This document shows positions 1-60,599 of a DNA stretch of 64,000 nt, in pieces. Made by a program: the position numbers and the translations under genes. The notes under the pieces were generated by a model. The model searched no databases and was not told where the DNA came from. It saw only the letters and a program-made list of their open reading frames with translations. How positions within the stretch are numbered: the first letter of the stretch is position 1; the number at the start of each line of letters is the position of its first letter. The stretch comes from an uncultured Ignavibacteria bacterium (GTDB lineage: Bacteria; Zixibacteria; MSB-5A5; CAIYYT01), in contig CAZIBI010000011.1 in the NCBI GenBank assembly GCA_964537215.1, positions 4,517 to 68,516 on the forward strand, read 5' to 3'.

Positions 1-333
1 CAGTTTAACGCCTATTTGCGCTCGATCGTCTTGAATACGGTCTTGAAAGCGGCTGAAAGCGAAGCAAGGCTGGAGCCAAGCTCGGAGTCTGTGTTGCCGG
101 AAGCCACCAACGGCGACGAGTTCAAGCGGTTTGCCGACAAGGACGTGGTCGAATTTGTCCTCGGTCGCCTAAACTCCGGATGCCGTGAGCTCCTGACGCT
201 CAAGTACTTGCAAGATTTGGACAATTCCGAAATCGCAGAGAAACTGGGACTGCGCGAGGGTACAGTTAGAGTTCGAATTCATCGTTGCACCGAGGGCGCA
301 AAAGAAGTATTGAGGGACAATGGACTTCTGTAA
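1..333 (+). CDS. ECF (sigma-70 family) RNA polymerase sigma factor, C-terminal part; gene continues upstream of the window
   Basis: The translation contains a sigma region 4 helix-turn-helix (...LTLKYLQDLDNSEIAEKLGLREGTVRVRIHRCTEGAKEVL). The reading frame is open back to position 1, and the start listed by the ORF finder at 16 is a TTG. An anti-sigma factor gene follows immediately. Confidence 0.7.
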   Translation, partial: QFNAYLRSIVLNTVLKAAESEARLEPSSESVLPEATNGDEFKRFADKDVVEFVLGRLNSGCRELLTLKYLQDLDNSEIAEKLGLREGTVRVRIHRCTEGAKEVLRDNGLL

Positions 334-382
334 CAATAGCATCGGAACTGGTACCGATATGTTGGAGGCGTGGAGATAGCTT

Positions 383-1231
383 ATGGCTTGCAACGATCCG
401 CGCTACCAATTCTTGCTGGCTGATGCCGCATTGGGCAAACTGTCGCCAGGCGAGATGTTCCAGCTTCAGAGCCACTTGCGCAGCTGTCAAACTTGCCGTG
501 AGAGCTTCAGGGCCGGCGCGATTTTGGCAGGAAAGGACCACGAAGATTTGACTAAGGAATTTGGCGGGCATCCATCAAACGACGAAATTACGCAATACTA
601 CTCGGAGCGCGCCGGCTTGGCGCCCGCCGTTTTGCAATCGATTGAATCGCATCTGGAACTGTGCGCCTTGTGCCGCGAAGAATTGCAATTGTTCGAGCAG
701 GTCGAGCAGGAAATGCTTGCGGCAGCTACGGCAGGACAGAAAACAGCCGGCAATGACGGCGGCTGGCAACACGCTAAGGCGATTGTCCTCCACCCGGTTT
801 TTGCTGCGGCGGTGCTTCTTGTCGTGGCGACGCCGCTGTATCTGATGTGGCGAGATCAAGCCAAACTTTCGGCGCCGATAGTTCCAGGCATACCAACTGC
901 GATAGAACTAAGAGAACCGAGCCGATCGGGCGGAAGCATACAGACTATCCTCAAGCGGCCCGATGGCAGCTATCTGCATCTCATTCTGCCCTATCCTTAT
1001 CAAGTCAGCACGCGTCACTATTTTGTGCAGCTTCACGGTGCCGAAGCAATGAGCGCGGAATCACCGCCGGTCTGGTTGAGATTTTCGCAAGCCGGTAAGA
1101 TCGATGCGTTGATTGGGGCCGCCAATCTCCCCGAAGGGCGGTATGAGCTTACAGTATTCGATGTCGGACGCGAGTTACTGCCCGATACTCTTACCACCTC
1201 ATTCATCTTTGATCTCAAAATTCGAGATTAG
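383..1231 (+). CDS. ZAS-type anti-sigma factor: two zf-HC2 motifs, one transmembrane helix and a periplasmic C-terminal domain
   Basis: There are two HxxxCxxC motifs (HLRSCQTC and HLELCALC). A hydrophobic helix (AIVLHPVFAAAVLLVVATPLYLMW) is followed by a roughly 130-aa C-terminal domain. The gene lies directly downstream of the ECF sigma gene. Confidence 0.6.
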   Translation: MACNDPRYQFLLADAALGKLSPGEMFQLQSHLRSCQTCRESFRAGAILAGKDHEDLTKEFGGHPSNDEITQYYSERAGLAPAVLQSIESHLELCALCREELQLFEQVEQEMLAAATAGQKTAGNDGGWQHAKAIVLHPVFAAAVLLVVATPLYLMWRDQAKLSAPIVPGIPTAIELREPSRSGGSIQTILKRPDGSYLHLILPYPYQVSTRHYFVQLHGAEAMSAESPPVWLRFSQAGKIDALIGAANLPEGRYELTVFDVGRELLPDTLTTSFIFDLKIRD

Positions 1232-1267
1232 CATTTTCAGCGCCAGCAAAGTTGTCGAACAACGCAA

Positions 1268-4200
1268 CTATCTTCCAACCACAATAAAGGCTCCCCACGA
1301 GTATGGATGCGGCGGCATATTTGCTTCGCGAAGTTCACGTAGCGTGGCAAGCTGCGCTTTTCGCACAGCCGATGCAAAACCTTCTTGAAGATTTGTGTAG
1401 AGTCGCTGCATTAGTCGTGCTGTTGATTGGTCGGGCACGTTCCAAAGCGTGCTTACGATGGTCTCGACTCCGGCCAGTTGGAATGCCCGGCGCAGACCAT
1501 AGACGCCCTCGCCATCGTTCACAGTCCCAAGACCCGACTCGCAAGCGGAGAGGACCACGCATTTCGTGCCATGTAAGTCCATCGCAGCGATTTCCTCGCC
1601 GGACAGAACTCCATCCTCCCCGACCAAGGCTGAATCCGCGGGCGCGAGCACTGCCGCTCCGGCTAATAGCAATCCAGATAGCAAAAGAGGATTTGCCGTC
1701 GTGACTTCTTCAAGAGCTTTTGGAAAACAATCATGTGAGAGAAAGTAGGCATGCGTTGCCAGGTGAATAATCTCGTTTCCGCTCGCCAGCCGTTTGAAAT
1801 TCTCCTCGGAAGCTGCGTCACCTACGAGAATATATACCGGCTGCGAATGCGCGGCTCGCCATATTCGAGCGGCGCTTTTTACCTCGCTGCGTGAGGCGAC
1901 CAATGGCGTCAATGATTCCCTCGGAATTCGACAATTTGCCAGTATGCCGCGCGCTACACTATTTTTATTAGAACCCGGTGCATATGAGGCAATCTCCGGA
2001 TTCGTGCTGGCGAAACGTTTCGACAGATCAGCAGTGAAATTCGGGTCGCCGAGCGCCAGCAATCCCGATTGGCGATTTGCAGGGGCAACATCTCGATTGA
2101 GATCGCGAATGCTGTTCAGGTAGGAAAATTGATATTGTTCGATCAGAAACGAATTCGTTGAAGTCGGGAGTGATCCAAACGAAAGCGAATTCAGCGCGCC
2201 GTCGGGAATGACAAACACCTGTCCCGAATCGGGCATGAACTTGCTCAAGGGCTGCCACACGCTGGCAGCTATTTTTTGACCGACCGCGAGGTAAACCAAT
2301 AGCGAATTTGAGTCAGCATCGCCGCCGGTTTCCGACATTGCGCTCATCTGCAAACCGACCCGTCCGATGGCGTCTTCGATTGGCTCTGCCGCGCCCAAGT
2401 TGATCGCCCGCAAAGATCCTCTGTTCGCGATGAACGCTGCATATTGCGATACTCTGCGAGTTGCTGAATAATATTTGACAAACTCAATGAGCGGCGAATT
2501 TTCGCGCAGTAAATTTATCGTTTTATCTTCGCTTAGAATTAGGGTGCCGGGGTCGTCGCCAATCTCGTATCCCAGATGCACCAGCGATTCTTCCAAGAAC
2601 AGTTTTCGAGCGGCAAGGCGCTTGAGTCGACGGTCGAATTTTGCAAAAGAGGAGTCCGCATCGTTTTCAATTTGCGCTCGCGCCAATTGAAGTGAAACAT
2701 CCCGCAACGAATCAAGCAATGGAGACACTCGTTTGTTATTCGAATTCATCAGGTGGGCGCGGTGCTCCAGCACAGATTCCGACACGATCGCCCTCCCGGA
2801 AAGAATCACGGCTGCAAACTCGTCGACAGCGACCGATTTGAGATCGATTCCGGATCTTTCGGGCTGCCGTCGCTGATCGTCATCGGCAAAGAGCGAAGAA
2901 ATGAATTTGTCGCGCAGTTTGTTAATTTCACCGGCAAAACGAGCCGCCTTCAATTCCGGCAATACCTGCACAGCATCCTGAAATCCTGCAAGAGCAATTT
3001 GGTAGGCTCTGGCAAAAGACCGCTGCGCTTCTTTTACTCGATTGCTCCGCAGCTGCAATTCGCCATAGCTGGATAGCAATTCACTCATTCGTGTGCTCTT
3101 GGTTATTTCAACTGATTCGGCAATCGCGATTGCGCGTTGATAAACTGTGTCCGATTGAACAAGATCGCCGCGATCGCGGAGATATTCGGCATGTTCGACC
3201 AAAGGTCGAATTAGGCGGAAGTTGCTCTCGCCATCCCGGCGGTTAACAATGTCTATTACGAGGCGCACCAGACTGTCGGCCTTGTCCAATTGACCTTCGG
3301 TCTTGTCGATTTCTGCGATTGTCATCAGCGCATCACTGTCGAGACTGTCGCCGCGAGCCCCAAGGATGGCAAGCGCCTTGTTCGCTTCAACATGTGCCAG
3401 CGGCAGTTTGCGTTGCTTGATATGCAGTTTGGCTAAGTCGAGATAACCGAATGCGACCTCCGGGTGGTCCGCACCCAGAAATTTGCGTTTGACTCGTAGA
3501 ACCCGATCCAGCATCTCTTCAGCATCGTCGCTTCGCCCCCACTCATCATATAGCACGGCAAGATTCTGAAGAATGCTCACCGTCGCGGCATCATTGGCGC
3601 CAAGTACAGTTTCACGAATGCCAAGCGCCCGTCGCCAATAGGTTTCCGCCTCGGCGGTCCTTCCCTGATCGAAGCAGACTTTACCCAGAGAATTGAAGCT
3701 TGAAGCGATATCCGGATGGTCCGGCGGCAGAGCCTTTCTGCGGATTTCCAGCGCTACGTTGTAAAGGGATTCGGCGCGCGCAAATTGTCCCATCTGGCGA
3801 TAGAGACCGGCAAGGTTTGACGTCAAGGAAGCGACCTCCTGATGCCCTTCGCCCTGGGTTTGCTTTCTCAATTTTATGCCAAGTGTAATCAGTTCTATGG
3901 CCCGCGAGTACTCGCCTTCGGAAGCAGCGACGCCGCCCAGCCGATCAATACTTCCTTGGCATTCGATATGCTCCAATGGTAAAGCAGCCAAGTTGATTTT
4001 GTACGCTTCGTTCCAATACTGAATCGCCCTCGCGCGATCACCACGTCGTACGTAGTAGTCGCCCAGCCGATTGAGAACATAGCCGACACTGGCATCCGCA
4101 GTTCCCAACCTGGTTCGCGCGATTTGCAACGCCTCCTCTCCGAGTTTGATGGCGGAATCCTGCTCGGCAAACCGACTCTGGACATTTGTAAGAAGAAATT

Positions 4201-4870
4201 TGGAGGCACCCTCGGCAAGATCCATCAGCGCGATGACAACAACCTTGGCATCTCCCCTTTGATTCGCCCGCCACTCTTGGGCGATTTGGGCATCGATGCG
4301 CCAGTTATCTTTGAAACGAAGTAGTCTGACATAGACTCCAACCAACTCGTGCAGATAGGTGAGGCGATTGACCAAAGATGCGTCTACTGAAGTGTCTGAT
4401 AGCGCAAGATTCTCCAGAGAGTCTGCACGCCGTTCGTCGCCTTGCTCCTCTGCCATAATCATCTGGCGCCAGGCGATTGCACGACGAAGCGCAACATTCG
4501 TTGGATGAATTTTCGCCGCGAATGCGGCTGCTGCCGACCAAGACGAGTCGGCTTGGGCGACGGAACTGTCCCGCATGTGATAATCGCCGAGACAGATGAG
4601 TATTGCGGCTCGCGCGCTATCAGCATCCGGCGCTTTCGGATTGACCAATGCATAGGCTTCCCACGCCAGTTGCTTAGCAGAATCGCTCGGCCATATTGCT
4701 CGCTGGCGGGCAAAGGAAATGTCGCACGACAAGCGCTCCGCCAGCGCGAGGCGCGACACCCAATCATTTTGCTCTGCGAGCGAAATAGCTGTAGATAGCA
4801 GAACCGTGATTAGTATGGCCAGACTGCGGGCCAAAACTCCTCCCAGTTTTATTGGTCGGTCAAAGATCAC
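1268..4870 (-). CDS. Secreted or exported TPR-repeat protein with C-terminal CHAT (caspase-like, clan CD) protease domain
   Basis: The N-terminus looks like a signal peptide or anchor (RSLAILITVLLSTAISLA). A long TPR-like helical repeat region follows. The C-terminus has CHAT hallmarks (HLATHAYF..., ...VVLSACESG...). The gene converges on the anti-sigma factor gene. Confidence 0.65.
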   Translation of the reverse strand: MIFDRPIKLGGVLARSLAILITVLLSTAISLAEQNDWVSRLALAERLSCDISFARQRAIWPSDSAKQLAWEAYALVNPKAPDADSARAAILICLGDYHMRDSSVAQADSSWSAAAAFAAKIHPTNVALRRAIAWRQMIMAEEQGDERRADSLENLALSDTSVDASLVNRLTYLHELVGVYVRLLRFKDNWRIDAQIAQEWRANQRGDAKVVVIALMDLAEGASKFLLTNVQSRFAEQDSAIKLGEEALQIARTRLGTADASVGYVLNRLGDYYVRRGDRARAIQYWNEAYKINLAALPLEHIECQGSIDRLGGVAASEGEYSRAIELITLGIKLRKQTQGEGHQEVASLTSNLAGLYRQMGQFARAESLYNVALEIRRKALPPDHPDIASSFNSLGKVCFDQGRTAEAETYWRRALGIRETVLGANDAATVSILQNLAVLYDEWGRSDDAEEMLDRVLRVKRKFLGADHPEVAFGYLDLAKLHIKQRKLPLAHVEANKALAILGARGDSLDSDALMTIAEIDKTEGQLDKADSLVRLVIDIVNRRDGESNFRLIRPLVEHAEYLRDRGDLVQSDTVYQRAIAIAESVEITKSTRMSELLSSYGELQLRSNRVKEAQRSFARAYQIALAGFQDAVQVLPELKAARFAGEINKLRDKFISSLFADDDQRRQPERSGIDLKSVAVDEFAAVILSGRAIVSESVLEHRAHLMNSNNKRVSPLLDSLRDVSLQLARAQIENDADSSFAKFDRRLKRLAARKLFLEESLVHLGYEIGDDPGTLILSEDKTINLLRENSPLIEFVKYYSATRRVSQYAAFIANRGSLRAINLGAAEPIEDAIGRVGLQMSAMSETGGDADSNSLLVYLAVGQKIAASVWQPLSKFMPDSGQVFVIPDGALNSLSFGSLPTSTNSFLIEQYQFSYLNSIRDLNRDVAPANRQSGLLALGDPNFTADLSKRFASTNPEIASYAPGSNKNSVARGILANCRIPRESLTPLVASRSEVKSAARIWRAAHSQPVYILVGDAASEENFKRLASGNEIIHLATHAYFLSHDCFPKALEEVTTANPLLLSGLLLAGAAVLAPADSALVGEDGVLSGEEIAAMDLHGTKCVVLSACESGLGTVNDGEGVYGLRRAFQLAGVETIVSTLWNVPDQSTARLMQRLYTNLQEGFASAVRKAQLATLRELREANMPPHPYSWGAFIVVGR

Positions 4871-5200
4871 GACTGTCGAATATGGTACTAATATAACCCC
4901 TTTTATCGATTAAGTCAAGCTCTGTTGGCGCGAGCCTGCAGTCCTTACGACCGCCCCCTGCGAATTGCGCTCTGGAGAAGCGTCATTTTGAAAGAGGTCT
5001 TTGCAGTGAGCTGCAATGGTGATTCTGGGAAGCTCGATAATGTCCATGAAAGAAGAAGGAATCAATAGTGCCTGGAAGCGACATGTCCGCACGACTTTCT
5101 TGCGACCCGTTCAGTTGGAAGTGTGGAGTTCTTCAGTTGGGTCCACCCGGATAGCTACGTTCCGATGTCAGTCACAATACCGAGGCACAAAAATGGCACA

Positions 5201-5222
5201 CCCGGAGTCTTCGGACTCCGGG
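5201..5222 (-). terminator. Stable hairpin (9-bp stem, UUCG/CGAA tetraloop) downstream of the tRNA remnant; possible terminator
   Basis: The plus-strand sequence is cccggagtc-ttcg-gactccggg. On the minus strand it is followed, after a 6-nt spacer, by AUUUUUG. It sits where a tRNA gene terminator would be expected. Confidence 0.35.
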
Positions 5223-5261
5223 CGGGCTAGTGAAGATCATGATAACTCGTTGGCTAGTAAA

Positions 5262-5306
5262 TGCCGGAGGGGGGAATCGAACCCCCACGGGTTTATGGCC
5301 CGCCGG
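5262..5306 (-). other. tRNA 3'-terminal fragment (T arm plus acceptor 3' strand); putative prophage att core or remnant
   Basis: The minus-strand sequence reads GGGGGUUCGAUUCCCCC-CUCCGGC-A, a canonical T stem-loop (GTPsiC-type UUCGAUU) followed by a 7-nt acceptor 3' strand and discriminator. No complementary 5' acceptor strand (G[CU][CU]GG[AG]G) and no D or anticodon arm occur within 150 nt upstream. Instead there is an unrelated perfect hairpin, GACAGC-AAA-GCUGUC. Confidence 0.5.
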
Positions 5307-5454
5307 ATTTTGAGTCGCTCGGACAGCTTTGCTGTCATAGAGTTACGAATCGTGTAACTGCCGCAGTGTCACTCCAAGAAATTCTTGTCAATAATAAGCT
5401 ATGATCGGTCAACCTCATACTACATTTTTAGGCTCGAATTAGGAAGGAGTAAAA

Positions 5455-6312
5455 ATGTGGGATGAATTGATCAGGTGGATTGGTGCTTTACTTGTCGGTG
5501 GAGCAGGGGTAGGAACATCTCTTGCCGAAACTCGGTATATGGGTGAACTCAACATTAAGGGTCGGCTCTTTCTGTTGAGCACGATTGTTGGCCTGCTAAT
5601 GATCACTGCAGGCGAGGTTTACAATCATTTTGTTGAAGACCGCCTTCAACGTCAGAATCAAATTGAAAATAAGTTCAGTACTCTTAAGGAATTTCCAATC
5701 AGAAATTTGGTGTTTGAATTTCATGTGGACAGCAAGAAGCTTAGCGACTTCCCGACTTTTAGCGCCAACTTCAATATAGAGGCTTTTACACCCGCTAACA
5801 TGAAGTTATTCGCACCCGTCGTACATATGCTCGGCGGGGTCTGCCATGATAGAGATTCGGGATGGGTCACGGGTGGCCCCCCTACTTATCCATTTGAAAT
5901 AGAACACAGCGATACTACACTGAGGTTCATAATTGAAAATCCCATGCTATATGCTGGTCCTAAGAATCCAAAACTTCGAATATCAAAAATATCTGACCTT
6001 GCGGGCCTTGATCTCCAGGTCTTCTTGGTGAGAACAGGGTGGACTGGAGATTGGCGAGATGCAACTTTTTCTCCAAGCGCCAATCCACTTACCGAATGTG
6101 AAGTGTTTGCTGAGGCCACCTTTGGAAAGCAACTTGTTTTGAAGTTGATTCCGGTGTATGAGCGTGATGATTCGAGCTGTGTCGCTGTGTACCTCCCCGC
6201 CACCGAAGCTCTAAAGCTAAGTACCGTGTCGGACTTTCGTCGCGCAGGGTGGAAATATAATCACTTCACGGTTGATGTCGCTGAAATGAAGAACTATTTG
6301 GAAGTACAATAA
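5455..6312 (+). CDS. Membrane protein (two N-terminal transmembrane helices plus a roughly 200-aa soluble domain); cargo or moron gene at the prophage end
   Basis: It is the only substantial plus-strand gene in the prophage. It is visibly more AT-rich than its surroundings and has a strong RBS (AGGAAGGAG, 7 nt before the ATG). The two hydrophobic segments are IRWIGALLVGGAGVGTSLA and LFLLSTIVGLLMITAG. Its own terminator follows. Confidence 0.6.
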   Translation: MWDELIRWIGALLVGGAGVGTSLAETRYMGELNIKGRLFLLSTIVGLLMITAGEVYNHFVEDRLQRQNQIENKFSTLKEFPIRNLVFEFHVDSKKLSDFPTFSANFNIEAFTPANMKLFAPVVHMLGGVCHDRDSGWVTGGPPTYPFEIEHSDTTLRFIIENPMLYAGPKNPKLRISKISDLAGLDLQVFLVRTGWTGDWRDATFSPSANPLTECEVFAEATFGKQLVLKLIPVYERDDSSCVAVYLPATEALKLSTVSDFRRAGWKYNHFTVDVAEMKNYLEVQ

Positions 6313-6313
6313 A

Positions 6314-6348
6314 CCCCGTCAACTTTAGTCGACGGGGTATGTCGCTTT
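6314..6348 (+). terminator. Rho-independent terminator of the plus-strand cargo gene
   Basis: The sequence is ccccgtc-aactttagtc-gacgggg followed by the T-rich stretch tatgtcgcttt, placed 2 nt after the stop codon. Confidence 0.5.
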
Positions 6349-6375
6349 AGGGGACCGACCGGCATCGAGAGAGGG

Positions 6376-6435
6376 GGCAGGAAACTCCCGATACCACACG
6401 GTCGCTCCCCAGCCGTAAGATAGCAGTTTCCTGCC
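6376..6435. repeat. 11-bp perfect inverted repeat (ggcaggaaact / agtttcctgcc) enclosing a 38-nt loop, in the gap between convergent terminators
   Basis: Direct inspection of the sequence. Confidence 0.5.
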
Positions 6436-6458
6436 GTAGTCAAGCGATTTCTCAACAC

Positions 6459-6487
6459 AAAAAAAACCCGGCCGTTTCCGACCGGGG
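6459..6487 (-). terminator. Rho-independent terminator ending the minus-strand late or lysis operon
   Basis: On the minus strand the sequence reads CCCGGUCG-GAAA-CGGCCGGG followed by eight U residues (plus strand aaaaaaaa-cccggccg-tttc-cgaccggg). It lies about 40 nt after the stop of the 6528..6962 gene. Confidence 0.6.
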
Positions 6488-6527
6488 TCACCCTAAAGAA
6501 GAAGCACACCGCCGATGCGGAGTTCTG

Positions 6528-6962
6528 TTAGGCCGCCTTGACCAAGGTCGGTGCTGCCACCTTCTTGAGCCAGTCGGCGCCTTTGAATTTGTTCAGCCAG
6601 GCAATCGCGGCGTCGACGCCCTTGCCGATGATCCAGCCCTCGATCGATTCCGGGACAAACGGAATGTCAATGACGCGGTTGATGATCTCGACCAAAGCGT
6701 CGCGCTTCTCTTTGCTGATCAGCACGGCACCGGTGTCCTTGGCGATCTTCTCGATCAGCCAACCGGCAGTGCGCGAGATCTCTGCGACGGCGAGCATGTT
6801 GCCGGTGACGGCTTTGTCGAAGCCGACGATCTTGCCGGTGTCGTCGAGCTCGAACGGATTCCACCCTTCGACGCCGACCATGCCGACCAACTCCTTGATC
6901 TTGTCGACGTCGAGATATTTGACTAATTCCGTTTTCAGGAATGTCGCATCAATAGATGACAT
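6528..6962 (-). CDS. Hypothetical phage protein (144 aa), last gene of the late operon
   Basis: An ORF with a protein-like composition, positioned downstream of the lysis genes. Confidence 0.4.
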   Translation of the reverse strand: MSSIDATFLKTELVKYLDVDKIKELVGMVGVEGWNPFELDDTGKIVGFDKAVTGNMLAVAEISRTAGWLIEKIAKDTGAVLISKEKRDALVEIINRVIDIPFVPESIEGWIIGKGVDAAIAWLNKFKGADWLKKVAAPTLVKAA

Positions 6963-7022: not shown

Positions 7023-7505
7023 TTACGCGCCGCGCCGCGGAGAGCCGCCCCAGATGAAATTGCCGACCATGTAGATGATGATCGCTGCCACTGCCCCCTG
7101 CAGACCGAACCGTATTGAATACCAAAACCCGAAACCGGTCGGTGAGATGAAGGCCAGGAATATGCCGATCACGAACGGCAATGCTATTGACCGATTGTCG
7201 ACAAAGAAGAGCTCGCCGTTCTTCTTGACCTTGCGCTTCGTAAATTCCGTCAACACGAAGATCATGCCGACAAGCACGGCGAACAGAAACGGGTTTGCGC
7301 CAAAGTACCGCGCCAGTGACTCGATCGTGAGAATTTTGTCGAAGTCGAACGGCGACGGTGTGACGATAGTCGTATCCACAACAGTCGAGTCGAAGCTGCT
7401 CGCGGTTACGGTTCCGACTGCAGGCACGGCATTAGTCGGAATGGTCTGCTGAGCCCAGAGAGTGACTGGCATGATCAGCAGTGCCAGAACGAAAAGGATT
7501 CTCAT
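7023..7505 (-). CDS. Holin-like or lysis-associated membrane protein (signal peptide plus three transmembrane segments)
   Basis: The product begins MRILFVLALLIMPVTLWAQQ and has three further hydrophobic helices. It lies immediately downstream of the endolysin gene. The start is placed at the internal Met, because the 7023..7640 ORF would overlap the endolysin by 115 nt. Confidence 0.4.
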   Translation of the reverse strand: MRILFVLALLIMPVTLWAQQTIPTNAVPAVGTVTASSFDSTVVDTTIVTPSPFDFDKILTIESLARYFGANPFLFAVLVGMIFVLTEFTKRKVKKNGELFFVDNRSIALPFVIGIFLAFISPTGFGFWYSIRFGLQGAVAAIIIYMVGNFIWGGSPRRGA

Positions 7506-7525
7506 GTGTTTCAAATTCCCTCCAA

Positions 7526-8089
7526 TCATAGCACCGTCCGCGACAACCAGCCGTGGAGGTACCTGCGAAACTGTGAATTGTTGATTGCTAACTGCGTATA
7601 GAAGGCCCGCCGCAAATCCACCTGGCTCTCGGCGATCCAAGCGTAGTCTGACTTTGCCGCGGTCAATGCAGCAATCGTCTGATCGCCCATGACACCATCG
7701 ATCTTGACATCGATGCGCGACTGCGGACTTTTGTTGTGGACGTTTAACGCTGACTGCAAAAATATGACAGCCCGTTGGGCGCCGATATTCACAGCGGCGT
7801 CGAAAAGTTCGTTGGCTATTCGCTGGTGGATAATCTGGTTGCAGCGCAGTCGCTCCCAGATGTCGAGATAGAATGTCTCAACCTCGTCATTGATATCCGG
7901 GTCCAGCTCGAGCATGCGCGGGAAGCCGGGCCCCTTCTTCATCTCGTCGACCTTCACCCACCCCGGCCATTGTGGGTTGCGCTTGCGAGCAATGCCGCGA
8001 AACGTCTCGCCGCCTGGATCGGCGGGATCGATTGAATAGCCGCCCTCGTGCTTGGAAGTTTGCTCCCAAGCGTATTTGAATTCTGCCAT
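7526..8089 (-). CDS. Endolysin, glycoside hydrolase family 108 lysozyme domain with C-terminal peptidoglycan-binding domain
   Basis: The N-terminus carries the GH108 signature HEGGYSIDPADPGGETFRGI. The C-terminal part resembles PG_binding_3. Confidence 0.75.
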   Translation of the reverse strand: MAEFKYAWEQTSKHEGGYSIDPADPGGETFRGIARKRNPQWPGWVKVDEMKKGPGFPRMLELDPDINDEVETFYLDIWERLRCNQIIHQRIANELFDAAVNIGAQRAVIFLQSALNVHNKSPQSRIDVKIDGVMGDQTIAALTAAKSDYAWIAESQVDLRRAFYTQLAINNSQFRRYLHGWLSRTVL

Positions 8090-8092
8090 GGC

Positions 8093-9097
8093 TTAAGTCG
8101 TGGTACCGGCGACCTGCAACTCGTAGAAGCTATTTTGCGCCGCGTCGCCGGCGTTGAGTGTTAGCTCGCACCAAATGCCGATAGCATCAGCGGGCTCGAG
8201 GTTTCCGGTCGGCACGTTCTTGTTGCTCGAGTCAAAGGTTCCTGAAGGCGCAACCTTTCGGTTATTGCCGGAACCGTTCGTACCCGAGGCGTTGAGCGAG
8301 CCTTCGAGCATGAATGCTTCTTTGGTCGAAATACCCGACACGACTTCGCTGACAACTGCGTTGGAGAGCGCCAGCGTCGCGTGGGTATTCTTGGCGAAGA
8401 TCTTGTCGTAGCTCTTGACGTTCGAGCCACCGGTCGCGGCCGCGGCTTCGTCGAAGTGAATGCGACGGCACTGCATGATTTCGGTCGGTGTCTTCTCGAA
8501 AAACATTCCCGGAGCCACTTCAAATCCGGATCCGTTGGCCGGAGCCGTGCCCCAATCGTTGCGGACATAAGCACGCTTCAACGTGCCGTTGTACGCGACA
8601 ATCTCGTTAAGCCCGTTTGCACCGGTTCCGGAAGTTACGCGGACGACCTGGCCCTTGTAGATATCGTCTGTGGCCGAAGCGCCGGCGTCGAGATCGATGT
8701 AGGGCTGGCCATCGGCGTCAACACCGCCGCCGGTTGCCGTGTTCGATCGTGTGGCCGTATTGGACATCAGCGCAATATGGCCAGCGCAAGTGGCGGACTT
8801 GACCGCCTTCAACAGGCGCGCAAACGTCTTCGGCGTACCGGCCTGGACTGCCGTTGTTCCGTTCAGGTTGATCGTTTCGGTGATCTTCGCTCCGGAAGAC
8901 GAGCGGCCGGTGATCGCAATGTTCTGTGTCGTGTCGCCGGCGTTTGCCGAAACGGCCTTGAGCTGCACAGCCGAGCTCAATTCGCCCCAGACGACTTTCT
9001 TGGCGGTGTCAATCGCGCCGCCGATTTGCTGCACTGTGTCATCGTCCGGCATGGTAGCAGAACCATAGAACCGGATGTCGCGCTTAATAACGCTCAT
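8093..9097 (-). CDS. Putative tail fibre or receptor-binding-associated structural protein (334 aa)
   Basis: It lies between the giant fibre gene and the lysis genes. Its G/T/S/N-rich composition is typical of fibre or adhesin proteins. Confidence 0.35.
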   Translation of the reverse strand: MSVIKRDIRFYGSATMPDDDTVQQIGGAIDTAKKVVWGELSSAVQLKAVSANAGDTTQNIAITGRSSSGAKITETINLNGTTAVQAGTPKTFARLLKAVKSATCAGHIALMSNTATRSNTATGGGVDADGQPYIDLDAGASATDDIYKGQVVRVTSGTGANGLNEIVAYNGTLKRAYVRNDWGTAPANGSGFEVAPGMFFEKTPTEIMQCRRIHFDEAAAATGGSNVKSYDKIFAKNTHATLALSNAVVSEVVSGISTKEAFMLEGSLNASGTNGSGNNRKVAPSGTFDSSNKNVPTGNLEPADAIGIWCELTLNAGDAAQNSFYELQVAGTTT

Positions 9098-9136
9098 GCT
9101 CTACCTCGCTATTCGAAATGTTGGGATTGCTGAAAT

Positions 9137-9520
9137 TTAGACTGTGGCCAGATTGGTAATCTTGAACCGTAGTTCATCGACAAAGGTCTTGGGCTCAGCG
9201 CCCGCAAGGACGACGGTCAAAGTTAGGACGTGCGTTTCCTCGCAGATCTCGGCTCCGCCGCTGTACACGATCACCGCATCAGCCGGAGTGAGCTCCAAGA
9301 GAAATTCTCCATCTTCATTGAAGCATTCGATCAAGTTCATTGCATTGCGACCGTTGACTGCTGCTGTAGGTTTTCCCTCGACCGTGATTTTTCCCGTCGC
9401 CGATGCGATCATCGAGCGGACGACGACGGTTCCATCCGAGGTTTTCAATTCCTGATCGAAATACAGGTCGAAGGAATTTCCCTCGCGGACTGAACCGGTT
9501 ACGTTGATCGGCATTGTCAT
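9137..9520 (-). CDS. Hypothetical protein (127 aa), coupled to the giant fibre gene by a 4-nt overlap
   Basis: ORF with a 4-nt overlap; possibly a fibre chaperone or assembly factor. Confidence 0.35.
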   Translation of the reverse strand: MTMPINVTGSVREGNSFDLYFDQELKTSDGTVVVRSMIASATGKITVEGKPTAAVNGRNAMNLIECFNEDGEFLLELTPADAVIVYSGGAEICEETHVLTLTVVLAGAEPKTFVDELRFKITNLATV

Positions 9521-12500
9521 TGCCTCCGAATTCGTGCTTTGATTAGTTCTGTGACTCGCGTAATGGCCGCATTGAGCGATGCGGATTTCATCGCAGCGCC
9601 GGACAGCTGCAGGGATTGCAACAGAACTTCCGTTAGCTCCGGCGTCCGCAACATTGCGCCGCCGAGCTCCGGCACAAACAGCCTGGCGTTGGCAATCGCC
9701 AGGACCGCCAGAAAGACGCCTATGTATTCAACTGGAAGTTGCGACTGTGCAATGATTCCGCGCAGGGCTTCGACCTCGAGCCGCGAACGCAGGCTGAAGG
9801 CGCGATTGAATTCAATGTGAGTTGTGATAGATCCCGACACCGGGCTGACAAAGTCAATCGACATGTGGCCCGTCGCGCCAATTCTCCCCATCCATTCCGC
9901 GAGAATACCCTGGGCGGCCGAAATTGCCTTGTTATGCTCGACGGCAAGCCGGTTGGAAGCCGCGAAGGCCTTGCCGGTCTCAACCAGAAGAGTTCCGCCG
10001 ACAACGTTAATCGTCGCACGCGATTCGATCGGCAACCGCGTGTTGGCCGCGACTGACGCTTTCCACTCAACCGGAATCGCGGAACTCATTGAGACGACCG
10101 TTGCGCCGGAGAATTCGAGCGGCAGCTTTGTCGCAAGAATCACTTGCAGCGCGTGCTCGATATTGGTTTTCAATACGCTTGTGACAATCGTGCCCGTATC
10201 GATTTGAAATTGGCTCTGCGCGGCAAGCTTACGCAGGAATTCGGTATTCATGCCAGCGATCACGCCCGCCAACGCCCGGCTTAATTCAACCGGAGCATTC
10301 AATCCGCCGGAAACAGACTTGAGCGATTCCGCCGGCAGCAACGCCGAAAGCGTCCGGACTGAAAGCGACTCGATCTCGACGCGGCCGCGGGCGTCGACCG
10401 AACTGCGCCATTCGACCGGCAGCTGCGCCGACACTTGGAAGTTCTGTGCTCCCAACCACTCGACGGCGATCTGTTGGGCAAAGGTGATCGTGGCCGCCAG
10501 CTCAACCGGAGCCTTCGCCATCGACAACCGCTGCATCAAGACTTCGACCAGTACACTGTTCGCCGCTTGAAGAGTGCGAAGGTGCTCGGTAAGTAGCCGC
10601 GTGACAATCTGCGTGCTGGCCAACCATTCGACCGCGGCTGCGCTTTTAACTATCAGAGATCCGGAGAAATCGACAGCGAGTTTTTGCCCGGCCGCAATCG
10701 CCCTGTTGGTCTCTACCGGGACGATGCCGCTAATCTGAACAGATCCCAGGAATTCGACCGGCAACGCGTGAGTCATCGCTACCTGAAATTGCCCTGTCCA
10801 CTCAACGGGAAGACTGACCGCGTTCGCGACGCTGCGCAGTGATTCGACCGGAACGATTTGCCCGGCAGCTACCAGCTTATTGATCTCCGCCGGCGACGTC
10901 ATCGCCGCAGCAAGTTGCCGCAGCGTTTCGACTGGAGCGACTAAGACCACTGCGAATCCGCCGCGCAGCTCGATTGGAAGTTGAACCGCGGCTGTTAAAC
11001 CGCGTGCGTTTTCGACCGCCATTCCTGCCGGCGTAACCAGGCTGTGCAGCAGATCCGCCGGCATCCCCGATATTGCGGACAGCGAGCGGACATAATCAAG
11101 CGGCAACGTGAAAAGAATCGCGACATTGCCCTTGTACTCTGCCGGCAGCATACTTCGCAATTCGATCCCTGCGAGTGAATCGACAGGAAGCGGCGTGCTC
11201 GCCTGCAGCGTGGAACGCCATTCGGAGAATATCTGCTGGGCAGTCGCCAATTGCTTGTTGGCTTCAACCGGCACGGCGATCTTCGCCTGGAGCGAGCCGG
11301 AGTATTCGTCGGGTAATTTTGTCGCGATCGCAATCGCCGCGAGGCTTTCCATATACTGCTTTAGCGACGCAACCAATGCTGCGCTGAATTCTACCGACAT
11401 TCCTGATCGTGCCTGCAATGAACCGCGCAACTCCGTTGGCAAAAGTGAGCGCGTCTGAAGTGCGCTATTATTCTCGGATGCCAGTACGGCCGTTGATCGC
11501 GTAAAGTATTTGTCCAGCTTCATGTCGATCGTGAATTGCTCGACGCCGGCGCCAAGTAGCGCGATATCGGTCGTGAAGCCCGCAACCTCTTCCGGCTGCA
11601 GATCGATGACCGGGTTGAGATCCCACCAGTAGATTTTGATTTCTTCGATTTCGGCGGTGACGTTTCCCGATGTCGTTACAGTGACCGCGTAATAATCCAC
11701 CTTGACCGAGTACTGACCCAGCGGCAAGCCCAGCGCCTTCAAATCAAATGAAACGGTTGTGCTCTGGAAGCTCGTGGTCAGATTCGTAATCGTGGCCGTC
11801 GAGTTGGCAACAGCTTTCGTCGCATCGTAGGTTGCGCCGCTGGAGACCCACACGTGGAAGCTGGCACTGGAACCGGCCGAGCTCGAGGTCAGCTTCGCGC
11901 GAATCTTGACGTCGAGTTTCCAAACGTCATTCTGCGCCATTTCGTGCTTGCCGTCTTGCGTCGCTTCGTAGGTGGCTGTGTGATCCGTGCTGTAAGAAAT
12001 TGTGTTATCGGTGAAGCTCGATGTCACCGTTGTCGTTTGCCGCTTGTCCTTCTTGCGCTTGACGATGATCTGATCGAAGTACGATCCTTGATCCGCCTTC
12101 AATTTCCATTTCGTCGCATTCGCGATTGAACTTGTGATTTCATCGGCAATCTTGGTACCGCCAAACCAGGCAGAGCAGCCAACGGAAGTGATCTGCAGGG
12201 CGACTTGATACATCTGGCTCTCGAGCGCGTGCAAGCTGCTGTCGTGCCACCCGGTGGAATCTTCGTACTGCGCATAGCTCACGTCGCGATTGATACCGAC
12301 CGACAACACGGCCGCGGCCGCATTGACCAGCTGCAAATAAGTCCGCAGGTACAGCTCATCCATCCAGAGAGCGCAACTAACGATGATATCATCGAGCGCC
12401 GAAGCTAAACTCTTCTCGAGCGCGAAGGTGCCACCCGGAGCGGTTTTCAGCGACCGCGAACCGGTGGCTGTCTTGTTCGGATGATTCGGAGGGCTGACGT

Positions 12501-15474
12501 AAACGGATCCGCTACTCGAGGTCACGGTCATGCCGCGCACGCCATTGACATTCGCTCCGTCCGCGAGCGTCTCAAAGTTCTCATACCCGAGAGGATAGAC
12601 AATCGTCGGATCCGACTTCGGATTGGTCGCGATATCGGGAGCGCCGTAATAGACGTAGAGATCCTTAGCGCCGGCCTTCTTTCCGGCCGACAACGCTTCC
12701 GGTGCCCGGAAAGAGACTATCGTCTCTTCATAGTTGGCGTAATCGATCACGCGGTCCAGCTCGGTCGTGCCCCAATAGACGCGTAGGTCCTTTACGTCGC
12801 GGCGAATCTTCCCATAGGGCGAGGCCGTGAGCTGGAAGACGTCGTTGCCCGATGTCCACATCAGATCAATGCGGTTGTTGGTCAGGCTGTGCTTGATGTT
12901 AAGTATCGGGACGCCAATAGATGAATTGCCGGTAAGGCTCCGTTTTGCCCAGGTTGCACCCGCGTCGTTCGAGAGCAGCTCGATAATCTCAGACGAATAG
13001 CTCTCGTCATCGGATGCTTCGACGAATTCGACAAGGCGATTAACCCGGCTAACTCTGATCGACGCGCCGGCGGTGAGCTGCTTGAATCCAAACTCGACCG
13101 TCTCTGCGGCAGCTTTGGTCCAGGCTGCCGAGGTCGACGGGTTCGTCGTCCAGATATATATTTTCTCGCCATAGGCAGTGTTGGTCAAGACCAGGTCCGG
13201 GCTCTGATAATCCGTGCTCGAGATCCGCAAGATCGCCCGCAGGTCCGGCGTGCCGGAGACCTTCTTCGCAGCGATCGCGACACCGACACCGATGATCAGC
13301 ACATCCGAAGGCAGCGTTGCCGACTTGGTAAAGGAGGCCTCGCAGGTGGACGACGCATGGAGATAAGTATCGTCGGCGTCATAACGTTGAATGCCGTCGT
13401 CGACCAGCGCGTAGTTGACTGACCCGGTCGAGCGTGAAATGTTTGTATGAAAGCCGTCGGCGGCCGGAATGTGATGCTTGTATGCGCGCGAGTCGGCAAC
13501 AGTATAGCAGTGAATCGTGCCGTCCTTGTCGCAGATTGCCGGGCTGCCGCAACGTCCCATCCGGATATTGAAATCCAGATCTTCGGTCATATAGGTGTGC
13601 TGCCAGGCGCCGCTTGCATAGCGCGAGCTGCCAAGGCCACCATCACCATCTGGAGCCCCGAAATCTGGGGCGTAAGCCCACAATACCACCGGCTTATTGT
13701 CGCGCGTCAATGTCAGGTGCCGACAAAAGAAGCTGACGCGATTCCCCGTTTCGTTTTCAATCACTGCGCCAGCGCTGGCTTTGTTGATTCCGGTGCCGGT
13801 TGTACCGCACTGGATTCCAGCGATCGTTCGCCAGGTTGCAAAGCCTCCGGAGCCGCCTTCGTTGTAGTCGCTGTATGCGTACCAGACGCCGAGGGCAATA
13901 TTTGATCCTCCGACGAATGACCAGGCGATGTGAATGCGCTCATTCTTGTCGAGGCGCAAGCCATACATGTAAGTTCGATAAGAGCCGACGTCGTTGTAAT
14001 TGATGATCTCCTGCTCGGAGCTCCAGCTCTCCCCTACCGTGTCGGAATAGTAGAGCACGACCTTGGTCGCCGCGTCGGTTGGTCCCTTGCGCGCGAACAT
14101 GTAAATGCGATTCGAAGAAGGCACCACGATCGCGATCGGATAAGTGTTCTGCGATCCGAGCGTGCCTTTGAGCGTCCAGCCGGTTTCGCCGGCAAAAGCG
14201 CCGGACTGATTTGGTGAGACCGACTTTGCGTAATAGGTCGCCGTGTAATGACAGCCATAGAAGACGTGCAGGTAGCCGGTGTTGTCGATCGTGATCGTCG
14301 GATAGTAGTGGGTGTCAGTGCCTGTGTGCGCGTTATCGATCTTATAGGGCGTGCCCCACTTGTTGGTCACATAGTCATAGCTCTGGATGTAAATACCGAG
14401 ATAGAAATCGCTCTCGAGCTGGCCGAGATAGACGACGTGCTTCTTGGTGCCGAACTCCGCGACCGCATATCCGCTTTCCTGGATCGCTTCATTGTAAGCG
14501 CCGTTGGTTGCAATCTTGTACCGGTTGCCGGTCTTGATTTTGAACTCGTGCGTGTAGTCATCGGTGCATCCGGAGTGCTTCGTATTGAACAGCATCTTGC
14601 GGCGGAAACAATATTTCTCATCCGCCCAAATCCGGTTGATACCTTTGAATTGCGCGTAAGCGCTGTAGTCCGATTCAATCGCCGACCCGTCTTTGAACTT
14701 GATGCGCCAGTAGTACCAGCCATTCGGCGGATCAGATGACAGCTCGCTGCCGTTGTAATCGATCAGCTGGCAGCGGTTGCCGTGCGAAATATCAGTGATA
14801 TCAATCCAGCCCGAGTCCCACACCGTCGAAGCGAAATTAGAAACCGTCGAGACCTGAACATAAGCATGCGTCGCTGTTCCCGATCCGGCAGTGGCATTCC
14901 ACTGCGCCGAGAAGACGGGATCTTCCGAAGCGTCGGTCGGCTGCGACTGGCGCTCGCACTCGAGGTTTGTTGGCGACGGGTGATTCGCGAGGGTGTAATC
15001 GACAACGATCCACACCTGCGTAACTTCCGGATGTTCGCCGGCGACGCCGCGGGCCCGGCACTTGACTCCAGCTTGCAGCGAATCGATATCGCTCGCCGAC
15101 CAGCTACCACCGCCCGGTCGCGAGACCACTTGAGAGTATTCGGCCCAGGATGTCGTAATCGAGAACTGGCTGCCTTCGACCGTCGTGCCGCCGAGGCGCA
15201 GGATCGGGATTACCTGGTTGTTGGTCGAAGTTCCAACCTTGCGGCAGCGAACATAGACCGTGACCGAATTGACAGCGCCATACGCGCCCGCATGATTCTC
15301 CAGCGCATAGCTGTCGGTCAGGTAACTGGTGCCGGTCGTGAAGACGTAAGTCGTGGCATCATCAGCCGACGACTCCGCTACGCACTCCCAGTTGGTTAAG
15401 AGGAGTTCAGGATCTTGTGGCGTCAGCGCGGTGAGGTCACCGGCACCGTTCGGGCGTAAGAGTTCTGTTGACAC
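9517..15474 (-). CDS. Giant (1985 aa) tail fibre or host-specificity protein: N-terminal Ig/FN3-like and beta-propeller-like regions, then about 40 tandem degenerate 18-aa repeats (LPVEW-type) at the C-terminus
   Basis: A single uninterrupted ORF. Its C-terminal ~700 aa are periodic (...SLPVEWTGQFQVAMTHALPVEFLGSVQISGIVPVETNRAIAAGQKLAVDF...). At DNA level the CCGGTCGAA-type unit recurs about every 54 nt. Confidence 0.6.
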   Translation of the reverse strand: MSTELLRPNGAGDLTALTPQDPELLLTNWECVAESSADDATTYVFTTGTSYLTDSYALENHAGAYGAVNSVTVYVRCRKVGTSTNNQVIPILRLGGTTVEGSQFSITTSWAEYSQVVSRPGGGSWSASDIDSLQAGVKCRARGVAGEHPEVTQVWIVVDYTLANHPSPTNLECERQSQPTDASEDPVFSAQWNATAGSGTATHAYVQVSTVSNFASTVWDSGWIDITDISHGNRCQLIDYNGSELSSDPPNGWYYWRIKFKDGSAIESDYSAYAQFKGINRIWADEKYCFRRKMLFNTKHSGCTDDYTHEFKIKTGNRYKIATNGAYNEAIQESGYAVAEFGTKKHVVYLGQLESDFYLGIYIQSYDYVTNKWGTPYKIDNAHTGTDTHYYPTITIDNTGYLHVFYGCHYTATYYAKSVSPNQSGAFAGETGWTLKGTLGSQNTYPIAIVVPSSNRIYMFARKGPTDAATKVVLYYSDTVGESWSSEQEIINYNDVGSYRTYMYGLRLDKNERIHIAWSFVGGSNIALGVWYAYSDYNEGGSGGFATWRTIAGIQCGTTGTGINKASAGAVIENETGNRVSFFCRHLTLTRDNKPVVLWAYAPDFGAPDGDGGLGSSRYASGAWQHTYMTEDLDFNIRMGRCGSPAICDKDGTIHCYTVADSRAYKHHIPAADGFHTNISRSTGSVNYALVDDGIQRYDADDTYLHASSTCEASFTKSATLPSDVLIIGVGVAIAAKKVSGTPDLRAILRISSTDYQSPDLVLTNTAYGEKIYIWTTNPSTSAAWTKAAAETVEFGFKQLTAGASIRVSRVNRLVEFVEASDDESYSSEIIELLSNDAGATWAKRSLTGNSSIGVPILNIKHSLTNNRIDLMWTSGNDVFQLTASPYGKIRRDVKDLRVYWGTTELDRVIDYANYEETIVSFRAPEALSAGKKAGAKDLYVYYGAPDIATNPKSDPTIVYPLGYENFETLADGANVNGVRGMTVTSSSGSVYVSPPNHPNKTATGSRSLKTAPGGTFALEKSLASALDDIIVSCALWMDELYLRTYLQLVNAAAAVLSVGINRDVSYAQYEDSTGWHDSSLHALESQMYQVALQITSVGCSAWFGGTKIADEITSSIANATKWKLKADQGSYFDQIIVKRKKDKRQTTTVTSSFTDNTISYSTDHTATYEATQDGKHEMAQNDVWKLDVKIRAKLTSSSAGSSASFHVWVSSGATYDATKAVANSTATITNLTTSFQSTTVSFDLKALGLPLGQYSVKVDYYAVTVTTSGNVTAEIEEIKIYWWDLNPVIDLQPEEVAGFTTDIALLGAGVEQFTIDMKLDKYFTRSTAVLASENNSALQTRSLLPTELRGSLQARSGMSVEFSAALVASLKQYMESLAAIAIATKLPDEYSGSLQAKIAVPVEANKQLATAQQIFSEWRSTLQASTPLPVDSLAGIELRSMLPAEYKGNVAILFTLPLDYVRSLSAISGMPADLLHSLVTPAGMAVENARGLTAAVQLPIELRGGFAVVLVAPVETLRQLAAAMTSPAEINKLVAAGQIVPVESLRSVANAVSLPVEWTGQFQVAMTHALPVEFLGSVQISGIVPVETNRAIAAGQKLAVDFSGSLIVKSAAAVEWLASTQIVTRLLTEHLRTLQAANSVLVEVLMQRLSMAKAPVELAATITFAQQIAVEWLGAQNFQVSAQLPVEWRSSVDARGRVEIESLSVRTLSALLPAESLKSVSGGLNAPVELSRALAGVIAGMNTEFLRKLAAQSQFQIDTGTIVTSVLKTNIEHALQVILATKLPLEFSGATVVSMSSAIPVEWKASVAANTRLPIESRATINVVGGTLLVETGKAFAASNRLAVEHNKAISAAQGILAEWMGRIGATGHMSIDFVSPVSGSITTHIEFNRAFSLRSRLEVEALRGIIAQSQLPVEYIGVFLAVLAIANARLFVPELGGAMLRTPELTEVLLQSLQLSGAAMKSASLNAAITRVTELIKARIRRQ
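9520..11500 (-). repeat. Tandem degenerate ~54-nt coding repeats (about 40 copies) inside the giant fibre gene
   Basis: Recurrent ttcgaccgg / ctcaaccgg / ctcgattgg motifs at regular spacing, matching the P[VI]E[WF] periodicity in the protein. Confidence 0.6.
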
Positions 15475-28420: not shown

Positions 28421-28996
28421 TTATCGAATTCTCGCTAATCCTCTTGGCCCGTTGATTCCAAAGCTTACCGGCGAACGCCACTCTTTGAAACCGACGCGCA
28501 GGCCTCCCCGCCGAATAGTCCCATCCTTGAACCGCTCGTCAATCCGGAATGAAAACCGCGTCATACGGCCGTTGTAATACCAGTCGTCGCCGATTATCAC
28601 CCGCACGAGCGATGAGCGCCCATTGTCGGGCCGGATGTTTCCCCAGTCGCGCAGCGCACCGATCACATTTTCGATTTTCACCAGCTTGTTGTCGGCACCG
28701 TCATCGTAGACGAGGTTCCGGTCAAGGTTATGCCGAACCACGGGTGCGGCCGGATCGACAACCCAGTCCGAGACGATTTCCATTTCCGTTTGGCCGACGC
28801 CGAGGAACTGCACGTCGATCTTGTCGGCTCCCGTCCACTCGGTGTCTGACCAACCGTAGGAAACGGCCGGCTCGATCATCTGCGGATTGAATTGCAAACT
28901 GAAAAATCTGTTATCATCCAGATTGTAGAGCTGCGCCCTGGCTATCGCCTGCGGTGCGCGTGACGTCACGAGCCGAATTGGTATGACAATGTTCAT
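28421..28996 (-). CDS. Tail protein, gpU / DNA-circulation-like (191 aa)
   Basis: Its start overlaps the tape measure stop by 1 nt, which is the canonical position for gpU. Confidence 0.4.
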   Translation of the reverse strand: MNIVIPIRLVTSRAPQAIARAQLYNLDDNRFFSLQFNPQMIEPAVSYGWSDTEWTGADKIDVQFLGVGQTEMEIVSDWVVDPAAPVVRHNLDRNLVYDDGADNKLVKIENVIGALRDWGNIRPDNGRSSLVRVIIGDDWYYNGRMTRFSFRIDERFKDGTIRRGGLRVGFKEWRSPVSFGINGPRGLARIR

Positions 28997-59996: not shown

Positions 59997-60599
59997 TTAG
60001 AATTCTTCCTCGACGAAATTCCCCGGCCTGGGGCGTCTTGTCGTTTTTGTATCCCCGAAATTCAATTTGCTTTGTTCGACGTGCGGCTGGAATTCGCCCA
60101 CGACCTCGAGCGCGACAACGATCCATTCATCGAAGCCCGGCTCGGTCACAAACCATTCCTTGCCCGGAAATGGATAGGCGTTGACGACGTTGTCGTTGAT
60201 GTAGAGGAATCGAGTGTCGACAAACGGATTCTTCTTTGTCTTTCGATCGCGCTGCAGCGAATCCTTGACGCCCTTCTTGAGATTGTCTTCATCGAGCAGC
60301 GCCCGCGTTCTCGTCTGTGACTTGAGCGGACGGCCGTTCTTGTCTGCGAATTTCTTCCGCATCGTCTTTTGGTGGCTGGCGACGTGGTACTCGAGGTACA
60401 TCACGATCGGAGTCTTGACATCCGGAACGATCCATCCGGATTTCTTCTTGGCCCTTTCCAGCTCGCGCCGCGCCCGCTCCCGGAATGCTTTGTAATCGCC
60501 CTCCAGGAAGACCATCTTCCTGCCGTTCTTCCACGCCTCGATACGGCGATGGTCGAATCCGAGCGGACCGGGAATGATGAATTCGATGCGCTGGCTCAT
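59997..60599 (-). CDS. RusA-like Holliday junction resolvase (200 aa)
   Basis: The motif ...LLDEDNLKKGVKDSL... matches the RusA D-x-DN-x-x-K-x-x-x-D signature. The gene overlaps dnaB by 4 nt. Confidence 0.5.
   Translation of the reverse strand: MSQRIEFIIPGPLGFDHRRIEAWKNGRKMVFLEGDYKAFRERARRELERAKKKSGWIVPDVKTPIVMYLEYHVASHQKTMRKKFADKNGRPLKSQTRTRALLDEDNLKKGVKDSLQRDRKTKKNPFVDTRFLYINDNVVNAYPFPGKEWFVTEPGFDEWIVVALEVVGEFQPHVEQSKLNFGDTKTTRRPRPGNFVEEEF

Follow-up and report, generated by a model that had tools for sequence, protein, structure and literature searches.

The window, the 64-kb stretch of DNA analysed here, carries at the att-proximal end of a prophage a gene for a predicted membrane protein (P0001), and this cargo gene is very probably a horizontally acquired moron, as judged from its base composition and from the corresponding interval of related phages. 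In those relatives similarity to the window ends at 6460, in one set of them it starts again at 5361, and since the content of the slot between these points varies from phage to phage, the gene is best read as an addition to the phage chromosome. From the predicted placement of its product we infer that envelope-directed lysogenic conversion is the best-supported role of P0001.

The cargo gene belongs to a myovirus-like prophage whose integration site is a tRNA-Leu(CAA) gene. The prophage extends from 6528 to the end of the window with its genes on the minus strand, among them those for a GH108 endolysin, tail proteins, the portal, the large terminase and a DnaB-like helicase (Table 1). Minus-strand ORFs of high GC3 cover 92% of 6400-64000, and the gaps contain minus-strand ORFs of lower GC3; the other plus-strand ORFs of the prophage, considered as candidate genes, look like shadows of minus-strand genes and were rejected. 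ORF coverage and GC3 thus support the original prediction that the cargo gene is the only plus-strand gene of the prophage.

At the prophage end, the minus strand from 5322 to 5262 reads CCGAGCGACTCAAAATCCGGCGGGCCATAAACCCGTGGGGGTTCGATTCCCCCCTCCGGCA, a fragment that starts in the anticodon stem and has the anticodon loop CUCAAAA (anticodon CAA), a long variable arm, a T arm, the 3' acceptor strand and the discriminator base A. Its CAA anticodon and class-II features identify it as the 3' part of a tRNA-Leu(CAA). The matching 5' half is absent, no full tRNA was called there by ARAGORN or Rfam, and an Rfam scan of 4800-6700 returned no RNA family. Independently assembled Logan contigs from the same sample (k = 31) break inside the fragment, the phage-side contig (L001) starting at 5294 and the flank-side contig (L022) stopping at 5289, and these breaks fit a repeat of ~62 nt at about 5260-5323. 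The contig breaks therefore suggest that the fragment is present more than once in the source genome, as expected of an att core; this repeat is deduced from the near end of the prophage alone, the far end falling outside the window. As in other tRNA-integrating phages, a 3' tRNA fragment lies at the prophage end and a repeat of it is implied, and in the related phage L014 the order is terminator, tRNA fragment, integrase. An att remnant had been predicted near the cargo gene, and the tRNA-Leu(CAA) fragment, repeated in the source sample, answers to it.

Two sets of related phages were recovered through the genes neighbouring the cargo gene. One, the more distant, is represented by L014, a 68.8-kb Logan contig whose endolysin is at least 90% identical to that of the prophage and whose DNA is 66-75% identical to window 11319-6460. 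The other, which is closest to the prophage, comprises the ENA contigs L018-L021, in which the 144-aa late protein is 90% identical; at least 23 contigs with this 90%-identical protein were examined, and they reduce to four arrangements. In both sets blastn similarity to the window ends at 6460, directly past the shared terminator of the late operon. This terminator, a hairpin with a T8 tract on the minus strand that had been predicted to lie beside the cargo gene, is kept in three related phages, L014 and L018 among them.

Beyond this point the relatives differ from the window and from each other. L014 follows the order 334-aa gene, endolysin, 141-aa gene, 144-aa gene, terminator hairpin, ~110 bp and tRNA 3' fragment (attP), beyond which come a 378-aa tyrosine integrase and then lysogeny and early genes; no gene lies between its late terminator and attP. 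In the L018-type contigs similarity restarts at window 5361-5183, a segment comprising the att arm, an identical 59-nt tRNA core and a conserved terminator, and in L018-L021 the place of P0001 in the slot is taken by an unrelated gene for a 331-aa SDH_protease (PF01972), which lies on the same strand as the late operon. In L018 this ClpP/S49-like protease cargo (8562-9557) has a GC3 of 0.47 against 0.69-0.77 in the late genes, and it gave no PADLOC match. The slot thereby occurs in three states among related phages: with the P0001 gene, with the protease gene, and empty. On these alignments, the comparison shows the interval between the late-operon terminator and attP to be a cargo hotspot with apparent exchange of cassettes.

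The insertion that carries P0001 measures ~1.1 kb (roughly window 5362-6459) and has conserved phage sequence on either side. It holds a single ORF, with the late-operon terminator and the att arm as neighbours, and no transposon-like terminal repeats of the insertion were found. Its non-coding spacer includes a perfect 11-bp inverted repeat (6376-6386 and 6425-6435), which is probably not meaningful, its fold scoring z = -0.96 against shuffled sequence. Derivation of the cargo gene from one of the phage's own proteins was also considered and was rejected, the family profile being negative against all ORFs of the window and of the related loci.

By definition a moron is additional DNA of deviant GC content that has a promoter and a terminator of its own (PMC3594210). 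The cargo gene is extra DNA lying between sequences that are adjacent in relatives, and its base composition deviates as well. Its GC is 0.456 and its GC3 is 0.448, as against a GC3 of 0.66-0.80 in the phage genes and 0.54-0.59 in two genes of the left flank (13 phage and flank genes measured); it is the lowest-GC 858-nt stretch in the window (z = -4.5, with 0.3% of windows as low). The lower GC claimed in the original prediction is therefore borne out by computation, and its reading of the gene as moron-type cargo at the prophage end agrees with the extra DNA, the foreign composition, the opposite orientation and the gene's own translation signals.

The ORF is intact and starts with ATG, and a Shine-Dalgarno sequence, AGGAAGGAG, stands 5 nt before the start codon, as expected from the strong ribosome-binding site claimed earlier. 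The sole promoter-like site upstream is a weak 9/12 match that sits on the right-hand junction of the insertion and was scored against the consensus sigma-70, which is maybe not that of the host. A hairpin predicted in the leader (dG -21.8 kcal/mol, z -4.0; 1 of 200 shuffles folds equally well) may be a translational control element of the cargo gene. Because it would occlude both the Shine-Dalgarno sequence and the AUG, constitutive expression in the lysogen is not assured, and if the hairpin is real, translation of the gene would be regulated rather than constitutive. Downstream, the claim of an own terminator holds in part: a strong hairpin follows the stop codon (dG -19.7, z -3.7), but the U-tract is missing on the plus strand, so we describe it as a 3' hairpin and not as a textbook intrinsic terminator.

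Table 1. Features of the cargo slot, the att site and the prophage, in window positions.
Feature	Position	Strand	Remarks
Terminator hairpin 3' of the tRNA fragment, beyond the prophage end	5199-5224	-	Conserved beside the att core in L018-type contigs
tRNA-Leu(CAA) 3' fragment, att core at the prophage end	5262-5322	-	Read from sequence; contig breaks
Phage-side att arm	5324-5361	-	Conserved with L018-type phages; right border of the cargo slot
Sigma-70-like promoter match, GTGTCA-18-AATAAT, 9/12	5366-5395	+	Weak; putative
Leader hairpin, predicted	5407-5472	+	Pairs the AUG and part of the Shine-Dalgarno sequence (GGAG)
Shine-Dalgarno sequence AGGAAGGAG	5441-5449	+	5 nt 5' of the cargo ATG; read from sequence
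Cargo ORF (P0001), 285 aa	5455-6312	+	ORF list, sequence reading, hydrophobicity, AlphaFold2 model
GC-rich hairpin, 12 bp	6313-6338		Starts at the first base 3' of the cargo stop codon
Non-coding spacer of the insertion	6339-6459		Absent from related phages
Late-operon intrinsic terminator, hairpin and T8	6467-6486	-	Left border of the cargo slot
Last late-operon gene, 144 aa	6528-6962	-	Homologue 90% identical in L018-type phages
GH108 endolysin	7526-8089	-	
Tape-measure protein	28996-31227	-	
Tail sheath	32943-34661	-	
Portal	45234-46859	-	
Large terminase	46873-48516	-	
DnaB-like helicase	60596-61993	-	

Both parts of the protein architecture given in the original prediction, two N-terminal transmembrane helices and a ~200-aa domain of no known function, are recovered. 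P0001 has hydrophobic segments at about residues 5-24 and 37-56, which are conserved in its homologues and helical in an AlphaFold2 model built from a four-sequence alignment (pLDDT 82.9, pTM 0.72). In the model, helices at 2-23 and 34-78 are followed by ~12 strands between 84 and 248 and by short C-terminal helices, so that a stalk helix ending near residue 78 leads into a beta-rich domain (84-248) without a family match, and C-terminal helices close the protein. A Foldseek search of the model against the PDB and BFVD found nothing at E <= 1e-3, the best being weak matches to Ig-like sandwiches. Across the four members of the family the invariant columns are W2, T26, P81, D92, P100, P113, G136, W137, L182, P211, V234, P248, D274 and L282; Pro, Gly, Trp and Leu make up most of them, two are Asp, and no catalytic-type set is among them, and the beta-rich domain accordingly looks non-enzymatic. 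With respect to topology, all four members carry a net positive charge (+1 to +3) in the loop that joins the helices and a net negative or neutral one in the segment after the second helix, the charge bias of P0001 itself being small. P0005 is predicted to have one additional N-terminal transmembrane helix, with its C-terminus still outside. Under the positive-inside rule applied to the four members, the C-terminal domain of P0001 is probably periplasmic, a placement held with moderate confidence.

The family to which P0001 belongs is very small. P0001 has no match in Pfam, PHROG, PADLOC or NCBIfam, and its homologues are likewise without a credible match; in PHROGs nothing was found at E <= 0.1 for P0001 or below E = 0.2 for the three homologues, and none of the four members matched a PADLOC-DB v2 family at E <= 1. 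A word-indexed search of 5.8 billion proteins returned P0001 itself alone, to which the family profile added P0005 alone. When 1.8 billion cluster representatives, which cover ~15 billion proteins, were searched exhaustively with HMMER, three remote homologues emerged: P0002 (292 aa, E = 9e-27, full length), P0003 (279 aa, E = 1.7e-8) and P0005 (329 aa, E = 3.4e-4). A further candidate, P0004, was discarded as a spurious HMMER match from a repetitive helical protein. The three homologues share the architecture of P0001 and align with it end to end at 19-27% identity. Further, tblastn against INPHARED (50,697 phage records) and PLSDB plasmids revealed no homologue, IMG/VR viral contigs yielded nothing with the family profile or with each homologue, and JGI metagenome contigs yielded nothing with the profile or with a hand-built degenerate motif. 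Among GTDB genome contigs only P0002 was returned, in a Candidatus Zixiibacteriota MAG.

The homologues lie in non-phage contexts on contigs of 1.3-2.6 kb (loci L005 196-1185, L006 208-1513 and L007 1-1783). P0002 stands between a collapsed beta-helix-like ORF (135 aa, of similarly low GC3; L006) and an Fe-superoxide dismutase gene, P0003 stands between genes for a right-handed beta-helix protein and a 3-hydroxyacyl-CoA dehydrogenase, and P0005 lies upstream of a gene for a PAAR protein. All are poorer in GC than their neighbours: GC3 is 0.49 against 0.71 for P0002 and 0.58 against 0.71-0.76 for P0003, and GC is 0.35 for P0005 against 0.58 in the adjacent PAAR gene. Given this pattern, the family acts in each of its observed settings as a mobile cassette of one gene. 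Two of the three homologues are directly downstream of secreted right-handed beta-helix proteins, which could be a genuine association or a coincidence.

Among known conversion cargo, the gtrABC O-antigen modification genes of P22-like and Shigella phages are an att-adjacent example. The cargo gene resembles them in lying beside attP on the side away from the integrase, in its independent orientation, in its predicted membrane product and in being variable between relatives. It differs from them in being a single gene with no glycosyltransferase or flippase signature and no Pfam match. By position and anatomy, as read from the assembled DNA, the cargo gene is a classic moron or att-adjacent conversion gene, and by sequence and predicted fold it is a member of no described exclusion or defence family.

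The analogy to phage exclusion comes from HK97 gp15 and P22 SieA, two inner-membrane proteins that block DNA entry (PMC3594210, PMC10883804). Like the cargo gene, HK97 gp15 is extra relative to related phages and has deviant GC (PMC3594210), and its small product, located in the inner membrane, is proposed to target the arriving tail or the step of DNA entry (PMC3594210), a role that P0001 might share by analogy. However, gp15 lies within the tail operon, the P0001 gene lies at the att end, the two have no sequence similarity (PHROGs), and P0001 is much larger, with a predicted folded beta-rich domain of ~200 aa. P22 SieA, an integral protein of the inner membrane that is encoded by a prophage and dispensable for the phage, offers a model for halting formation of the DNA conduit (PMC10883804). 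It differs from P0001, with which it has no sequence similarity, in its length of 162-164 aa, its three predicted transmembrane helices and its lack of a large soluble domain.

The cargo gene is probably transcribed on its own, opposite to the late operon, and its product would enter the inner membrane through the two-helix hairpin. The stalk helix and the non-enzymatic beta-rich domain of ~200 aa would then face the periplasm, where P0001 would alter events at the cell envelope of the lysogen, most plausibly by binding or obstructing a host membrane component that other phages need or the tail-tip or DNA-conduit proteins with which these arrive. Superinfection exclusion at the DNA-entry step is, by this analogy, the leading candidate role, and we put it forward tentatively, as a possibility that may well prove wrong. 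The original prediction named superinfection exclusion or abortive infection as candidate roles, and both are still hypotheses. Against it, P0001 has no sequence or structural likeness to known exclusion or defence proteins (PHROGs, PADLOC, PDB, BFVD), and its homologues stand beside Fe-SOD, 3-hydroxyacyl-CoA dehydrogenase, beta-helix and PAAR genes and not beside phage genes. By sequence it falls in none of the known exclusion families (SieA, gp15, Imm, Sp, Sie2009, Ltp, Cor/Llp), and as regards defence systems, no defence HMM matched and the insertion contains no partner cyclase or sensor gene. A fuller version of the proposal, which we consider rather unlikely as a whole, would place P0001, as the first member from a phage, in a new and extremely rare family of proteins that are anchored by two helices, turn a beta domain towards the periplasm and have no recognisable PDB relative, a family spread as low-GC single-gene cassettes among bacterial chromosomes and phages of uncultured lineages and acting as a stand-alone DNA-entry exclusion module.

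One alternative is a lysogenic conversion unrelated to defence, in which the outward-facing beta domain would serve the host envelope (adhesion, polymer or substrate binding, stress tolerance, or protection from toxins or bacteriocins) and the phage would be its vehicle. The homologues are single low-GC genes whose neighbourhoods are ordinary chromosomal ones and neither phages nor recognisable defence islands, secreted right-handed beta-helix proteins precede two of the three, and no homologue occurs in the viral contigs and sequenced phages searched (IMG/VR, INPHARED). Set against this, contigs of just 1.3-2.6 kb give a narrow view of context, and the att-proximal slot of temperate phages commonly houses anti-phage genes too. 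We regard this explanation as somewhat unlikely.

The architecture also recalls a different kind of protein. In CBASS effectors of the Cap15 type two N-terminal transmembrane helices precede a compact domain rich in beta structure, and P0001 is like Cap15 in this architecture alone. It could on that basis be a single-gene abortive-infection or membrane-disrupting effector, whose C-terminal domain would sense a phage cue or small molecule and whose two-helix hairpin would oligomerise and depolarise the membrane. A low-GC, mobile, stand-alone gene is compatible with such an effector, and a leader hairpin able to hold translation low would suit a toxic product. P0001 nonetheless differs from Cap15 in that PADLOC is negative, as it is for all four members, the cassette contains no partner cyclase or sensor gene, and the beta domain is larger and predicted to be periplasmic. 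The charge pattern puts the domain outside the cytoplasm, where triggers of abortive infection are not usually sensed, and the Gly-rich pattern of the first transmembrane helix is not conserved. We consider an abortive-infection effector improbable, and the outward-facing domain together with the lack of catalytic-type residues leads us to lean towards exclusion or envelope conversion over a cytoplasmic abortive-infection sensor.

A functionless hitch-hiker, recently captured and silent or decaying, would fit the weak promoter match, the Shine-Dalgarno sequence and AUG that can be sequestered in a hairpin, and the extreme rarity of the family, but it is quite improbable given the intact 285-codon ORF with its strong Shine-Dalgarno sequence, the end-to-end alignment with homologues that keep the architecture at 19-27% identity, and a sequence that is identical in two independent read sets. 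Least probable of all is an accessory factor of the phage's lytic cycle (lysis-timing, antiholin or spanin-like): the cargo gene, whose product is itself predicted to be membrane-anchored, lies beside the lysis cassette, ~1.2 kb or less from the endolysin gene and that of a membrane protein (7023-7640), yet it is on the opposite strand past the conserved late terminator, is foreign in composition, is missing from both related phage sets, which retain the same lysis genes, and has its homologues in non-phage settings.

Should P0001 block phage entry, as in the exclusion role, it would be an exclusion module that consists of one gene and is new in structure, from uncultured bacteria that have been little studied. 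If it is not anti-phage, it is an ordinary moron, and morons without an assigned function are common in prophages. Prophage morons are a known kind of gene; the protein family encoded by this one is very rare and uncharacterised. The related phages, three in kind, that have the gene, the protease or nothing in one slot offer a clean natural experiment.

The DNA on the other side of the att core has features of its own. Direct repeats of the tRNA-Leu 3' fragment border the apparent host flank (window 1-5259; L022 1-8985) on both sides: L022 begins within the fragment (window 5289) and ~8.9 kb on ends in a second copy, CACAAAATCCGGCGGGCCATAAACCCGTGGGG, with non-tRNA DNA before that copy. This segment encodes an ECF sigma factor, a zf-HC2 anti-sigma factor (383-1231), a 1200-aa TPR-CHAT protein (1268-4870), a Peptidase_S74 protein and a dockerin-like protein, and an integrase is absent from it; it has the look of an island, or of the remnant of a prophage, that integrated next to the present prophage in a tandem arrangement. 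In L018 (9764-16062), and also in L019 and L021, a 402-aa integrase comes next after the att core and conserved terminator, and beyond it are encoded an HTH_17 excisionase, a sigma-70-like protein, a 308-aa protein and a 919-aa TPR-CHAT protein. These genes may represent a form of the neighbouring island in which the integrase is retained, whether as a tandem island or as part of the phage. An ORF at 5016-5357 (+), like one at L018 9768-9942 (-), crosses the reverse complement of the tRNA fragment (...CRRGESNPHGFMARRILSRS...); we take neither for a gene, because the conserved tRNA sequence simply lacks stop codons, and the reading of the L018 integrase ORF through the att core is probably an artefact of a missing stop codon.

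Within the prophage, two very large late proteins, of 1985 aa (9517-15474, -) and 1363 aa (20315-24406, -), have almost no family annotation, and the homologue of the 1985-aa protein in L019 and L020 bears BNR/sialidase-type repeats.
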